From Escherichia coli (GTDB lineage: Bacteria > Pseudomonadota > Gammaproteobacteria > Enterobacterales > Enterobacteriaceae), in NCBI RefSeq assembly GCF_030013205.1, contig NZ_CP122648.1: a stretch of DNA of 64,000 bases, one strand, 5' to 3'. Below are positions 30,001 through 45,000 of the stretch, one piece after another (the first letter of the stretch is position 1; each line of letters begins with the position of its first letter). Position numbers: made by a program.

Positions 30001-33000
30001 GATGGGCGCACGCACCTGCGCGCCGGCAATGGAGATCATCAGTGATACAGCTCGCAGTAACATCCCGGCGCTGGGCTATGCGGGCACCTACGCAATCGCC
30101 AACGTCCTGCTGACGCTGGCAGGGACAATCATCGTCATGGTATGGCCAGGATTAGGATAAAACTGAAGTTGCCCTGAAAATGAAATTTTTTTGCACAACC
30201 GCAGAACTTTTCCGCAGGGCATCAGTCTTAATTAGTGCCACTGCTTTTCTTTGATGTCCCCATTTTGTGGAGCCCATCAACCCCGCCATTTCGGTTCAAG
30301 GTTGGTGGGTTTTTTGTTGCCTAAAATTTATGCCTTTTAAAATCATGATATTAGAAGCACTGTTTTTTAACGATGGCGACAAAATGGCGGCAGCGTCAAA
30401 GAGAGAGCGCCACCTGTCCTGATTTCATTGGATGCGGCTGAACCGGATTTGACTCTTTTGGCGTTGCAATCGAACGAACAAAAGTTTCATGGGTAACAAA
30501 AGTATGGCTGCAGTTAATGTTCTGGCACTGGTTGTAACGCTCTTTGGTCAATGAAGATACCTGAAAACTGCTGCGAGTATGGGCGGCACTTCCACACAGT
30601 GGGCAAATCATCATTTTTCGAGTTCTCCCCATTTTTGCTAAATTCACAATAATGATACCGCATTATTCCATTTTGCAAACTTAAAAGTTCTCCATTGCGA
30701 AGAATCATTCCATTTCGAAATCATCAATCCTCACTTCAAGCTCCAGACTGGTCGTAAAACCGTTATCCGGGCTGACGGTATGAGTCAGAGTCGTAATGGT
30801 CCATTCCGCATCATCTATCGGTTGTTTAAAGCCACTAACTTTCACTGGCATTTCCGTGTAAAGATCTGCCCGCCCTTCCGCCAGTTGTAGCGAGAATGAC
30901 GCAACGCCGCGTTGCAGGCGTTCCCACTGCATTTTCGCTGCCCGTTCAGCGTTGCTCCGGTTGGCATAAGTGCGATTAAGTACCAGCACGTTTTCATCCG
31001 TACCCACCAGGTAATCGCCCTGCTTCGCTTCCGGCTCTTTCTTCTGCTTCTTAGTTCTGCGCTTACGCTTCACCGTGGTACTTTCTTTCTTCGCAGGTTC
31101 GCGGGTATGCAACCAGCTGGCAATTACGCCCGTGTAGGCTCCGCGATCTGCCAGGGTAAAGCGGTGACTGTCGCCGTCCTTGCGTGTGATAGTGATCACT
31201 GGCAGTGGTTTACCAGTGGCGTTTTTGCCCTGCCCCTGCCGGATGAATAACAGATTGCCATTTTTCACCGACGCGATGGCACCGTACTGTCGCGCCAGCC
31301 GCATCAGAAAACTGCCGTCACTCTCATTAGTCTGGTCTATATGCTCCACGGGCTTATCCGACAGGTCTTTACCCAGTGCCATCTTCAGCTTGTGCCGCGC
31401 GGCTATTTCCTTCACCACTTCCCCGACGGTGGTCTTGTGCCACGACTTTTCACGACGGGTATTCAGCGTTTCCCGAAAATCAGCACTTCGCGCCCGGATA
31501 GTCAGGCGGTCCGGTGCGCCAGTGTGTTCAATCTCGTCCACCGTGAATGCCCCTTTCGGGAAAAGCGGCTGCCCCTTCCAGCCCAGCGCCAGCGTAATGA
31601 CCGCACCACGGCGCGGCAGCACGATTTTTCCGTCGGCGTCGTCCAGCTCCAGATCAAGCTGGTCTGCGTCAAAGCCCCGGTTATCCGTCAGCGTCAGCCC
31701 CATCAGGCGGTTGTCCAGCACAGTGGTGATACCTTCGTTGACTTCAACAACGCGCACCCCGTGGTGAAAATCATTCATTTGTATACCCACCATAGCCAAG
31801 GAACAACATATTCTCTATATTTTTTCAGTTAATAACTATTCGTGATTTATGTATAGCATCTGGTACAATCCACAAATGAAGTTAAATTGATTAATTCTCC
31901 TCGGAGAAATTCATTACCCATATGGTGCAAGTTGAGAATCCACACATGAAACTTAATACAAGAGACGAAAAACAGATAATTATTGAAAGAATGGATTGGA
32001 TTGACACCATGAAGTTTCTTGGCATACTCGCCATTTATATAGGCCATTTCTACCAAGCATCAGGAAAATTATATCCTTTTGTTTTTATGTATCACGTCCC
32101 TCTATTTTTCTTCATTTCAGGTTTTTTCTCATCATTAACAGACTTTAAATTCAACCCACATTTTTTAGTTAAAAAATTCAAGCGACTAATGGTGCCTTAT
32201 TTCATTTTTGCATTTATAAATCTAGCGTTGATTGCGGTAAACAAAAACTACGATACCGAATCAATCCTTAAGTCTATTTATGAAATCATCTGCGGAATAA
32301 GAAACACGCCTGCAGTTGGCACCATATGGTTCATTAACTGTCTTTTCGTTATAATAGTTATTGATTACATCACTTACACATTAATTAAAAACAGAACACT
32401 TGTTTTAATAATAGCATTAGCGGTACATTTCTATACACAATTGTTAATGCCTCACAATCCACTAAGTGCGCCAAAGTGGTTTATGAATATTGACTCAGCC
32501 TTAGCATACTGGTGGCTACTAGCAAGCGGCAGACAATTTTTTCCAATTTTAAAAAAATCAATCAATACATATAATAAACTCCTACCAATATGCATTTTCA
32601 TAGCATCAGGTGTGTTTACGGCGTATGCACTATTCAATTCTCAGTTCATAAATCAATATATCATTAATACATACATGCCAAATTTATCCAAGATTAATAT
32701 AGTTAATATAATCAATAATGACATTGGCATTTTAATCATTATCCTATTTAATGCTTTTCTTGCAAAGCGGCTATCCCGGATAAATCTACTAAAAAACATG
32801 GGAAAAAACACATTAAATATATGTGGCTTTGAAATGGGTACAAAACTCTTAATTTCGACTGCTATTATGATCCCTGGGTTAAGACTTCTATTACCTACAC
32901 CTCTATCAGCAGTCCTATACTCCTCAATATGTGTTATCTTTGCTCATCACATTACAACTTATTTATCAGCGAAATTCCCCTCGATATTCTCAATACGTTA

Positions 33001-42000: not shown

Positions 42001-45000
42001 ATTACCCCGTAATAACCACCACTGACCACCACATTAAGTTATTGTTTTTCATCTAACTTATTGTTTTTATTAACCCATTTAGATAAGTGGTTTTTTTGTT
42101 GCCTGAAATTTATCTACTACCCTGCAACCCTCTCAACCATTCTCAAAATCTCCTCGCGCGATAGCGGCTTACGGTCGGTGACAAAATGCAGCGTCATCCC
42201 CTCAATAAACGCATCAAGCGCGCGTGCGGTTCCGGGTTCAAACCATTGTTCGAGCGTTTGCTGACTGCGCTGCATCCAGTTTTGCATTACCGTTTTTAAT
42301 AGCGGTTTTCGGCTAGCCAGCGCGTAGAGCTGGTACATCAGCTCCATATTATCCGGCGTTGCAACCTGTGAGCTGTAAATCATATCGGTGATAGCCTGGC
42401 ATGCGCCCGGAGCATCACTAACATCGCTAAAAAATGCCTGATATTGCCGGGACATGATCTCAGTAAAACTGCTGAACGCCTCCAGCAACAACTCATCAAT
42501 TCCTGAAAAATAGTAGGTCATCGACCCCAACGGTACCCCGGCAAGGGTAGCAATTTTGCGGTGCGTAACAGCATGTATTCCATAAAGTTTCACCGCCTCC
42601 AGCGTGGCCTGGATAATTTTTTCTCGCCGTTGCGGATCGTTAGCGCGACGCATGTCATTTCCTCTCTCTGCAATTGTGTACAAATGTACACAACCTTGAT
42701 AATGTTGTCTTCCCTCTTCTTATTTTGACGTGATCTATGACCGTAAATTCTTCACGTAATGCATTGAAACGCCGAACCTGGGCGCTGTTTATGTTCTTCT
42801 TTTTGCCGGGCCTGTTAATGGCGTCCTGGGCAACCCGTACGCCTGCTATCCGCGATATTCTTTCTGTTTCGATCGCTGAAATGGGCGGAGTCCTCTTTGG
42901 TCTGTCGATCGGTTCAATGAGCGGTATTCTCTGCTCGGCGTGGTTAGTGAAACGCTTTGGGACGCGTAATGTCATCCTGGTCACGATGTCCTGCGCATTG
43001 ATCGGGATGATGATACTAAGTCTGGCACTCTGGCTGACATCGCCCCTGCTCTTCGCGGTTGGTCTCGGCGTCTTTGGGGCAAGTTTTGGTTCTGCGGAAG
43101 TGGCGATAAACGTTGAAGGTGCCGCCGTTGAGCGAGAAATGAATAAAACGGTTTTGCCGATGATGCACGGTTTTTATAGCCTGGGCACGCTGGCAGGCGC
43201 AGGTGTCGGGATGGCACTTACGGCCTTTGGCGTTCCGGCAACGGTGCACATTTTATTGGCGGCGCTGGTAGGCATCGCGCCTATTTATATCGCCATTCAG
43301 GCAATCCCTGATGGTACGGGCAAAAATGCTGCCGATGGCACCCAGCATGGTGAAAAAGGCGTACCTTTTTATCGCGATATCCAGTTGCTGCTGATTGGTG
43401 TTGTGGTGCTGGCGATGGCCTTTGCCGAAGGTTCTGCCAACGACTGGTTACCCTTATTAATGGTTGACGGTCACGGTTTTAGCCCTACTTCCGGCTCGCT
43501 GATTTATGCCGGTTTTACCCTGGGGATGACCGTTGGACGCTTCACTGGCGGTTGGTTCATCGACCGTTACAGTCGCGTTGCCGTGGTTCGGGCCAGTGCA
43601 CTAATGGGGGCGTTAGGTATTGGGCTGATTATTTTTGTCGATAGCGCCTGGGTCGCTGGGGTGTCTGTTGTACTCTGGGGACTGGGTGCCTCGCTGGGCT
43701 TCCCACTGACCATTTCTGCCGCCAGCGATACCGGCCCCGATGCACCAACCCGCGTCAGTGTGGTAGCAACGACCGGTTATCTGGCTTTCCTCGTCGGGCC
43801 GCCGCTGCTGGGCTATCTCGGCGAACATTATGGATTACGTAGTGCAATGCTGGTTGTACTGGCGCTGGTTATTCTCGCGGCTATTGTCGCGAAAGCCGTC
43901 GCCAAACCCGATACCAAAACGCAGACGGCGATGGAGAATAGTTGATGAGCATTAAATTAATTGCGGTAGACATGGATGGTACTTTCTTAAGCGATCAAAA
44001 AACCTATAACCGTGAGCGGTTTATGGCTCAGTATCAGCAAATGAAAGCACAAGGCATTCGCTTTGTGGTCGCCAGCGGGAATCAATATTATCAGTTGATC
44101 TCTTTCTTCCCTGAAATTGCTAATGAAATTGCCTTTGTGGCTGAAAACGGCGGCTGGGTAGTGAGCGAAGGCAAAGATGTTTTTAATGGCGAGCAGTCGA
44201 AGGATGCGTTTGCTACTGTCGTGGAACATTTGCTGACGCGCCCGGAAGTGGAAATTATTGCCTGCGGAAAAAATAGCGCCTATACCCTCAAAAAATATGA
44301 CGATGCCATGAAAACGGTGACGGAAATGTATTATCACCGTCTGGAATACGTCGATAACTTTGACAACTTAGAAGATATCTTCTTTAAGTTTGGTCTGAAT
44401 CTTTCCGATGAACTGATTCCACAAGTACAAAAAGCATTACATGAGGCCATCGGCGATATTATGGTGCCGGTCCACACCGGCAACGGCAGCATCGATCTGA
44501 TTGTCCCCGGCGTACATAAAGCCAATGGCCTTCGCCAACTGCAGAAATTATGGGGAATAGACGACAGCGAAGTAGTGGTCTTTGGCGATGGCGGTAACGA
44601 TATTGAGATGCTGCGTCAGGCAGGCTTTAGTTTTGCAATGGAAAATGCCGGCAGCGCGGTCGTCGCAGCGGCAAAATACCGGGCAGGCTCCAATAACCGT
44701 GAAGGCGTACTGGATGTGATCGATAAAGTGCTTAAACACGAAGCGCCATTTAACCAATAAAACGGCAGCACGCCCGGCAACACAATGCCTGAATGAAGAT
44801 TGCATAATTCGCGGAAATTAACCCGCTGCATTATTTCAGGCGAAATGATTATGAAAAATTGTCTACTGTTGGGCGCGCTTTTAATGGGCTTTACTGGTGT
44901 GGCGATGGCGCAAAGTGTCACCGTCGATGTGCCGAGTGGATACAAAGTGGTTGTGGTTCCTGATTCAGTCAGCGTTCCACAAGCGGTCAGCGTCGCGACT

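Follow-up and report, generated by a model that had tools for sequence, protein, structure and literature searches.

What occupies the 11.8 kb that separate ybjL from rcdA in an Escherichia coli chromosome, how did it get there, and what can it still do? The question arises in a 64,000-nt stretch of contig NZ_CP122648.1 (assembly GCF_030013205.1), which was analysed at its full length and is hereafter called the window. An earlier note on this stretch had proposed that the element at 30305–42113 is a decayed P2/186-family prophage at a non-tRNA site, bounded by 27-bp direct repeats. The analysis described here leads with high confidence to a more specific answer, namely that the element is a decayed 186-like prophage of the P2 family (Peduoviridae) that integrated site-specifically at the small RNA (sRNA) gene rybB and was afterwards deleted in place. 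The evidence comes from the structure of the attachment (att) sites, the empty site, the attP form, the family placement of the genes, a deletion map and a series of decay states in sister strains.

The two ends of the element are marked by a 27-nt repeat. Its left copy, GTGGGTTTTTTGTTGCCTAAAATTTAT, lies at 30305–30331 and its right copy, GTGGTTTTTTTGTTGCCTGAAATTTAT, at 42087–42113, with 25 of 27 positions identical. Shuffling the window 100 times gave no such match, so that none is expected by chance, and an independent repeat search recovered both copies as family D3. Host DNA lies outside the repeats, with ybjL (28475–30160) to the left and rcdA (42117–42653) to the right, and P2-type genes lie within. 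The left copy represents the attL core, whose 27-mer is single-copy in the empty site of strain GPEC464, and the right copy is the attR core, whose last base is followed, 3 nt further on, by the rcdA stop codon. The integrase gene, int, ends at 42012 and is separated from the right copy by 74 nt. The earlier note had described the repeats, their degree of identity, the host-outside and phage-inside arrangement and an integrase gene beside the right copy, and all of these were recovered at exact coordinates.

The insertion target lies at the 3′ terminus of a gene for a structured RNA, which by analogy would follow the same logic as integration into tRNA genes. In K-12, the rcdA–ybjL interval holds the sRNA gene rybB, and an intact gene for RybB, an sRNA that depends on sigma-E, is found in the same place in the window (30237–30315, plus strand), scoring 104.1 bits against Rfam RF00110 (gathering score 40; E = 5e-21). 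The only other Rfam match in the region, snoR25, reached 28.8 bits against a gathering score of 50 and is regarded as chance. The attL core consists of the last 11 nt of rybB (GTGGGTTTTTT), which take in the U-run and a portion of the terminator stem's 3′ arm, followed by 16 nt of downstream sequence. The stretch compared on the 5′ side of rybB, about 75 nt, is identical to K-12. The statement that ybjL and rcdA are adjacent in K-12 therefore holds for the protein genes alone, because rybB lies between them. Likewise, the site is indeed not a tRNA gene, but it is not anonymous intergenic DNA either, since the left repeat overlaps rybB by 11 nt. A weakening of RybB by the A-to-G allele of core position 1 was considered and rejected, as the predicted fold is practically unchanged (−24.6 kcal/mol in the window versus −25.2 kcal/mol for the K-12 allele) and the allele is present in empty sites. 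The site itself has been described before. The E. coli W genome paper (PMC3032704) names the "rybB ncRNA" as the place where the P2-like prophages Rybb*W, Rybb*B and Rybb*Cr are inserted, of which Rybb*B carries retron Ec86, and Table 2 of that paper lists cyaR as another sRNA site of P2-like prophages, where the K-12 remnant "ogr-D′" is located.

Genomes without the element provide the unoccupied form of this site. A 727-nt query composed of the left flank, one core and the right flank was identical to swine strain CFSAN018748 at 727 of 727 positions. When an uninterrupted site was defined as a single match covering at least 80% of the query, 4,294 of the 5,426 complete E. coli genomes had one. 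Core copies were counted in eight empty sites, taken from different lineages, and each of the eight holds one, in agreement with the proposal that the repeat arose from a single-copy attB. The absence of the repeat from empty-site genomes, which the earlier note had named as a refutation, was thus not observed. Four core alleles occur among them, 21–27 of 27 positions being identical to the attL and attR copies of the window, and GPEC464 is identical to attL. The K-12 core allele agrees with attR at 21 of 27 positions and with attL at 23 of 27. Repeated integration and excision turning the core into a polymorphism hot spot was found to be unsupported, with 5 of 27 core columns and 26 of 300 flank columns varying among the eight sites (Fisher p = 0.16). 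Also unsupported is the notion that CFSAN018748 is a cured derivative. Its flanks differ from those of the window by 30 substitutions in about 39 kb (~0.08%), in contrast to 17 lysogens that are ~100% identical over the 15.6-kb compared region.

The complementary product of integration was searched for with a predicted attP, in which the int side of attR was joined to the ogr side of attL (727 nt). Contig OM835953 contains this sequence without interruption, 96% identical along the full 727 nt. This contig, KP12_3, is an intact and complete P2-like genome of 34.8 kb in which int, core and ogr are contiguous, which is the attP arrangement. Finally, a query of int, attR and rcdA was recovered at 80% or more query coverage in 1,088 of the 5,426 complete genomes, so that roughly 20% of complete E. 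coli genomes have this integrase family at the rcdA junction.

These observations suggest how integration would proceed. A tyrosine recombinase would join the 27-nt attP core, located between int and ogr, to an identical or near-identical attB core, which starts within the 3′ arm of the rybB terminator stem and stops 3 nt short of the rcdA stop codon. In both partners, the core appears to be the 3′ part of an intrinsic terminator, represented by the 12-bp RybB stem in the host and by a 9-bp hairpin downstream of int in the phage. Recombination within the core would swap the 5′ arms, with attL terminating rybB and attR keeping a terminator after int. Because the core would supply the 3′ part of the terminator in both partners, both junctions would keep a terminator and rybB would remain whole. 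The phage-borne hairpin with its U-run was predicted by folding at 42072–42097 (plus strand), with the core as its 3′ arm. Its stem (AACCCAUUU/AAGUGGGUU) has 9 bp followed by the U-run, and its folding energy is −9.6 kcal/mol (z = −2.8) in sister strains and −9.0 kcal/mol in KP12_3. In the window, the attR hairpin is reduced from 9 to 6 bp and to −4.0 kcal/mol through a private G-to-T change at 42091.

The same change accounts for one of the two differences between the core copies. The G/T difference at core position 5 (42091) is private to the sub-lineage of the window, and since the attR of sister strains reads GTGGG, the ancestral attL/attR repeat was identical at 26 of 27 positions. The change from GTGGG to GTGGT is absent from ETEC6333 and EC556; it stands at a G/T homopolymer boundary, where a sequencing error is possible. 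The other difference, A versus G at core position 19, is a natural attB polymorphism among empty sites. Mapping of the crossover by means of these two differences was consequently rejected, position 5 being private and position 19 being polymorphic in empty sites.

The family placement follows from the gene content. The immunity repressor gene cI (39995–40564, plus strand) is intact and of the 186 type, with matches to Pfam Phage_CI_repr (3e-33) and Phage_CI_C (3e-27). It is divergent from an intact gene for a 73-aa Cox/Apl-like excisionase-repressor (39648–39869, minus strand; phrog_575 "Cox-like excisionase and repressor", 6e-31), which is followed by cII′ (39220–39615, minus strand; Pfam Phage_CP76, 4e-40), a 186-type CII gene lacking its C-terminus. 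The intact int gene (40960–42012, plus strand; Pfam Int_N and Phage_integrase) codes for a tyrosine integrase of 350 aa that is 54% identical to the 186 integrase over its full length, 36% to that of P2 and 95% to that of KP12_3. In tblastn comparisons, CII is 72% identical to 186 CII and CI is 33% identical to 186 CI, neither of them matches P2, and no homologue of P2 C or P2 Cox was found in the element. The lysogeny module is therefore 186-like, placed on a generic late region of the P2 family.

The late region is encoded on the minus strand and follows P2 order (ogr-D ... G-H-I-J-W-V ... S-R), being collinear with KP12_3 as well. By tblastn, its proteins are collinear with those of both reference phages, with identities of 42–63% to 186 and 38–65% to P2. 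Nearest to attL lies the intact gene of the zinc-finger late-gene activator, ogr (30396–30614; 72 aa; Pfam Ogr_Delta, 5e-22), whose product is 100% identical to that of KP12_3 and 54–55% identical to 186 B and P2 Ogr. It is followed by D′ (30705–31730; Pfam Phage_GPD; a pseudogene in RefSeq), a gene D without its N-terminus. The tail-fibre assembly gene G (33074–33670; Pfam Caudo_TAP, 3e-28) and the tail-fibre gene H (33670–35181; Pfam Phage_tail_fib, 8e-65, and Collar) come next, H being 52% identical to the N-terminal part of P2 H. Gene I (35178–35745) is broken by a 38-bp internal deletion relative to gene I of KP12_3, which shifts the frame. The baseplate gene J (35738–36646; Pfam Baseplate_J) is 63–65% identical to its 186 and P2 counterparts, and is accompanied by the baseplate wedge gene W (36633–36992; Pfam GPW_gp25) and the baseplate spike gene V (36989–37567; Pfam Phage_base_V and Apex). 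The tail completion gene S (38603–39052; Pfam Phage_tail_S, 3e-39) and R′ (39045–39224), the C-terminal 59 codons of gene R matching Pfam P2_Phage_GpR at profile positions 86–133 only, complete the set. The gene content listed in the earlier note (ogr, D, H/G, V/W/J/I, S and a 186-like immunity-integrase region) was thus correct by Pfam and tblastn, and the relatedness to P2 and 186 that it claimed is upheld by Pfam, by tblastn against both phages and by collinearity with KP12_3.

Genes for capsid, terminase, portal, lysis, replication, sheath and tube are all absent from the element, and no P2- or 186-like cos sequence was found in it. Owing to these losses the element is a remnant and not a phage, incapable of replication, packaging and lysis. 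The absence of replication, capsid, terminase, lysis and sheath/tube genes had been noted before, and the inference that the element cannot form particles is supported by the deletion map, the missing cos and the broken gene I. The same note had held that only the immunity module and cargo survive. Both are present, but they are not alone, as most baseplate and tail-fibre genes remain. A tailocin or another functional tail-derived device was rejected as an interpretation, for sheath, tube, tape measure and an intact D are lacking and gene I is broken.

The route of this decay was mapped against KP12_3 rotated to prophage order. At deletion junction 1 (31731–31732), KP12_3 positions 1432–7185 (~5.75 kb) are missing, which comprise the N-terminus of D, U, T, E/E′, FII and FI; relative to ETEC6333, this deletion amounts to 3,641 bp. 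Through it, the opening 15 codons of the sheath gene FI (31732–31778) have become joined to D′ in the same reading frame. The FI start codon is kept in this D′–FI fusion (30705–31778, minus strand), which forms an uninterrupted open reading frame (ORF) of 358 aa behind the presumed Ogr-dependent F-operon promoter. At deletion junction 2 (39221–39225), marked by a GTAAC microhomology, KP12_3 positions 14049–30548 (~16.5 kb) are missing, including the N-terminus of R, the lysis, head, terminase and portal genes, the cos region, the main cargo hotspot, A, dam, fil and the C-terminus of cII. The cII′–R′ junction of the window is derivable from the form found in EC556 by a 3,343-bp deletion between two GTAAC pentamers. 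Illegitimate deletions of the R-to-cII interval, of the FI-to-D tail block and of 38 bp in gene I disabled the prophage after its integration. They left a residue of 11.8 kb in which the att sites are intact and in which ogr, int, cI and the Cox/Apl-like gene are found beside two cargo genes of foreign origin and the greater part of the baseplate and tail-fibre genes.

Sister strains show further stages of the same process. Several chromosomes of porcine enterotoxigenic E. coli (ETEC), for example ETEC4067, match the window at 100% identity over 15.6 kb, and all 17 genomes covering at least 80% of the region are of swine origin. Four deletion states can be distinguished. ETEC6333 retains D in full and T in part, along with FI, FII and E; EC556 retains cII, fil, dam and part of A and has tail-block deletions of its own; ETEC4075 retains FI, FII and E, with only 129 bp of D. 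Relative to ETEC6333, the tail-block deletions measure 3,641 bp in the window, 1,729 bp plus 523 bp in EC556 and 2,458 bp in ETEC4075. Since their end points are overlapping but non-nested, they represent three independent events. All four states have lost the head-lysis block and carry the lesion in gene I, which RefSeq labels "frameshifted" in each of these sister forms. Retained in all four are the att cores, ogr, int, cI and the Cox-like gene, the genes for baseplate and fibre, and the two cargo loci, the FRG gene of ETEC6333 being frameshifted. Separately, the tail-block deletions of EC556 and ETEC4075 share a breakpoint to within about 3 nt (ETEC6333 locus L002, ~5394–5397, in the gpE/E′ region; compare L003 and L016), a coincidence that, among the breakpoints observed, a rough hand estimate puts at a chance of a few per cent. 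This region may be a local deletion hot spot.

Two genes within the late region are cargo. Both have a low GC content (32–38%) and are oriented opposite to the late genes. In the G/FI slot lies a gene for a membrane acyltransferase (31946–33001, plus strand; Pfam Acyl_transf_3, 6e-17; 32% GC), which is 42% identical to the acyltransferase of Shigella phage SfII and gave no PADLOC, PHROG or NCBIfam match. The Acyl_transf_3 family includes phage O-antigen acetylases, and a surface-modifying role may accordingly be suggested for this gene. Just 3′ of its stop codon, between the convergent acyltransferase and G genes, there is a terminator-like palindrome with a perfect 11-bp stem (AAACTACCTCC-TCA-GGAGGTAGTTT, 33007–33031), which is likely, as judged from its sequence, to be a bidirectional terminator insulating the cargo gene. 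The second cargo gene occupies the S/V slot and codes for an FRG-domain protein (37653–38588, plus strand; Pfam FRG, 2e-19). It is a candidate anti-phage gene, matching PADLOC PDC-S15 (8.5e-32, residues 18–289), where the PDC families of PADLOC are candidate defence families, as well as phrog_4962, and it is 93.6% identical to a protein of the Salmonella P2-like phage SEN8. In ETEC6333 the gene is frameshifted by contraction of an A8 run to A7 (window 38370–38377; L002 ~14112), giving 247 instead of 311 aa; this speaks against selection that is both strong and uniform, unless the change is a sequencing error. The accession of the FRG protein differs in EC556. Accessory and defence hotspots of P2-like phages are treated in two published surveys (PMC9122126; bioRxiv 10.64898/2026.02.27.708500), according to which such hotspots include places among the late genes and in the neighbourhood of int, and defective P2 elements retain defence genes.

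Several smaller features surround the recombination and immunity genes. Two tandem candidate arm-type sites for Int (ATGGCGACA and ATGGCGGCA) were located by motif and repeat search on the ogr side at 30373–30392, 42 nt from the core, and two further tandem candidates lie in the 3′ end of int at 41970–41991 (RTGGCGRCA motifs at 41972–41991), each with one mismatch to the 186 consensus. The pairs form a 22-nt direct repeat, D4 (right copy 41973–41994), in which 21 of 22 positions are identical. With the arm-type consensus YAYCGCCAYTY taken as annotated in the 186 record NC_001317, three of the four candidates match with one mismatch. The first site on the ogr side has no match to this consensus within two mismatches and fits the shorter motif RTGGCGRCA alone. 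A 15-nt sequence, TAA(G/C)TTATTGTTTTT, is directly repeated once at a spacing of 19 nt in the gap that separates int from the core (42035–42068; family D14), at a position matching that of the integration host factor (IHF) and Apl/Cox sites of 186 and P2. All these repeats, at 30373–30392, 41970–41991 and 42035–42068, may be regarded as candidate binding sites for Int, IHF or Apl. A scan for promoters and terminators yielded counts only modestly higher than those of shuffles (29 versus 19.5 and 19 versus 11.0), and it was used only for the acyltransferase palindrome and for a −35/−10 match 5′ of the Cox-like gene. Between cI and int, a small ORF of 63 aa with a hydrophobic N-terminus (40580–40771, plus strand) matches phrog_6000 (2e-34) and NCBIfam NF007463 (5e-34). 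The same slot holds a 1.7-kb "chromosome segregation ATPase" gene in KP12_3 and nothing in 186, and from this comparison it looks like a further cargo slot.

The closest known counterparts are defective P2-like prophages of laboratory E. coli at rybB, among them Rybb*B of E. coli B/BL21(DE3), which has the same insertion point between rybB and rcdA and is decayed, with a truncated cII as in the window. Its Cox/Apl-like protein has the same accession (WP_001247707.1), its CI is near-identical, the small ORF after cI is common to both, and the region of immunity genes plus int is 94% identical in DNA to the window element. Unlike the window element, it keeps portal, terminase, scaffold, part of A and retron Ec86/Eco1, with the retron reverse transcriptase gene adjoining the portal gene. 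Its attR core is the K-12-type allele ATGGGTTTTTTGTTATCTAAAACTTAT, which differs from that of the window. An additional hypothetical ORF of 333 bp (L009 37058–37390; a segment of ~480 bp) lies between int and attR in BL21(DE3), has no counterpart in the window, and fits the published "integrase-att" accessory hotspot of P2-like phages. The acyltransferase and FRG cargo of the window were not seen in the portion of the BL21 prophage examined. The retron Ec67 and Ec86 prophages reportedly map to 19 min with 26-bp flanking repeats, which could not be confirmed. The review PMC6868368, citing Dodd & Egan 1996, places retrons Ec67 and Ec86 within a 186-related prophage.

Among the reference phages, coliphage 186 (Eganvirus) shares the cI/apl/cII switch architecture with 186-type CI and CII and, as stated, 54% identity in Int. 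Its attP lies between int and the late activator gene and its core supplies a host RNA gene with its 3′ end, as in the window, and its tandem arm-type Int sites have apparent counterparts in the window candidates, which are close to the 186 consensus. The target differs: 186 enters the tRNA-Ile gene ileY at its 3′ end, with a shared segment of 36 nt (NC_001317), and the window element uses rybB with a 27-nt core. The 73-aa Cox-like protein of the window has no similarity to 186 Apl detectable by tblastn, and with CI only 33% identical, immunity presumably differs. The region equivalent to that of 186 tum, the antirepressor gene for SOS induction, falls inside the 16.5-kb deletion. With P2 (Peduovirus), the element has in common the order and content of the late genes and a 27-nt attP core (NC_001895). 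The Int arm site of P2 overlaps the 3′ end of int, as the window candidates appear to do, and the P2 slots G–FI (fun/Z) and S–V (orf30) are the positions of the window cargo genes. Unlike the window element, P2 has C and Cox proteins without homologues here, an Int that is only 36% identical and other integration sites. The "ogr-D′" remnant of K-12 at cyaR resembles the left end of the element in its position at an sRNA 3′ end, with ogr and a truncated D proximal to att; it was likened to it from its published description, and it occupies a different sRNA gene and is far more reduced. KP12_3 is 100% identical to the window in ogr, 95% in int and 97–99% in D, I, J, W and V, but differs in its CI (55% identical), in a different tail-fibre end, in an invertase and in the lack of the acyltransferase and FRG genes.

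Some database labels met in these comparisons deserve caution. Dozens of "Klebsiella phage" records are 95–99% identical to parts of the window prophage, and OM835953 is filed under Vequintavirinae despite its P2-like genome. Such records look like co-sequenced prophage contigs or mislabelled entries, and their host and taxonomy labels are untrustworthy. Elsewhere in the window, around ~54338–54348, CFSAN018748 (L017 32612–33810) contains about 1.2 kb of extra sequence with an IS481-family transposase and is otherwise 99.9% identical. This copy, which the window lacks, adjoins a RelE/ParE toxin-antitoxin pair downstream of rimO.

Certain points weigh against the interpretation as a site-specifically integrated prophage and limit its reach. 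The one position at which attL and attR differed ancestrally also varies naturally in attB, so that the crossover point cannot be inferred from it. The closest empty-site strain is ~0.08% divergent in its flanks and hence offers no evidence that the element has been cured. The attP evidence is a single contig of unclear origin, deposited from sewage as "Klebsiella phage KP12 clone KP12_3, partial sequence". Lastly, the case for integration comes from sequence comparison, and excision is hypothetical. Hardly any credence belongs to the idea that the 27-nt repeats are a target duplication or a chance repeat around an island acquired in some other way. Nothing but the bare existence of a direct repeat speaks for it, whereas no chance match is expected, empty sites are single-copy, an unintegrated genome has int and ogr joined by this core, 27 nt is the length of the attP core annotated for P2 in NC_001895, and 1,088 genomes have the same int-core-rcdA junction. 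A still-mobile element is also conceivable, either excision-competent or a satellite mobilised by a co-resident P2-like helper. The intact int, Cox/Apl-like gene and ogr, together with both att cores and the arm repeats, would be in keeping with it, and Int and Apl could still excise the element. Nevertheless, mobility of this kind is very improbable, considering that a search for a cos-like site found none and the 16.5-kb deletion took in the cos region, that no replication gene is present, that the attR core and hairpin carry a private mutation, and that an empty site was identified in no strain belonging to the clone.

A further explanation concerns not the origin of the element but its upkeep. 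The host might be keeping a defence and surface-modification island made of cI, the FRG gene and the acyltransferase, with selection for the loss of tail and lytic genes. In line with this, ogr, cI, int, the Cox-like gene and both att cores persist in all four deletion states, as do the acyltransferase gene and the FRG gene, the latter with a frameshift in ETEC6333. The FI–D tail block, moreover, was lost in three or more independent events whose end points are not nested. The FRG protein matches the candidate family PDC-S15, and the two surveys mentioned above (bioRxiv 10.64898/2026.02.27.708500; PMC9122126) describe defective P2 elements with conserved defence genes. On the other hand, the A8-to-A7 frameshift disrupts the FRG gene in ETEC6333, and J, W, V, S, H and G, which are of no use to such an island, are equally intact. 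The strains are ~100% identical, leaving too little time to separate selection from a mere lack of decay. Moreover, the FRG protein is without known anti-phage activity and the acyltransferase without a defence-family match. Possible as it is, a host-kept island is on balance an unlikely account. Somewhat more doubtful still is the suggestion that recurrent FI–D deletion within one pig-associated clone, two of the deletions sharing a breakpoint and with int, cI, the Cox-like gene, the att sites and cargo kept, reflects selection against a residual Ogr-driven tail operon or a structure-driven hot spot, i.e., domestication in progress and not neutral decay. The reading as a 186-like prophage integrated at rybB and then eroded in place is retained. 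On that reading, CI may still confer immunity to homoimmune phages, and the cargo genes may be expressed.

Earlier work has documented that P2/186-like prophages occur at rybB, that they decay and that they keep cargo genes, and little new biology is added by the present case. The window element is a lineage-specific, heavily eroded addition to the known group of rybB-integrated 186-like prophages, in which the independent tail-block deletions within one clone are the one mildly unusual feature. For annotation, the region is to be described as a rybB-integrated 186-like remnant and its 27-nt core as the end of rybB. With a prevalence of ~20% at the site, such elements are a major source of strain-to-strain variation beside a sigma-E stress sRNA. 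The four deletion states in near-identical porcine strains provide a natural series for timing prophage erosion, and they could also act as clonal markers for the O139:H1-type swine lineage.

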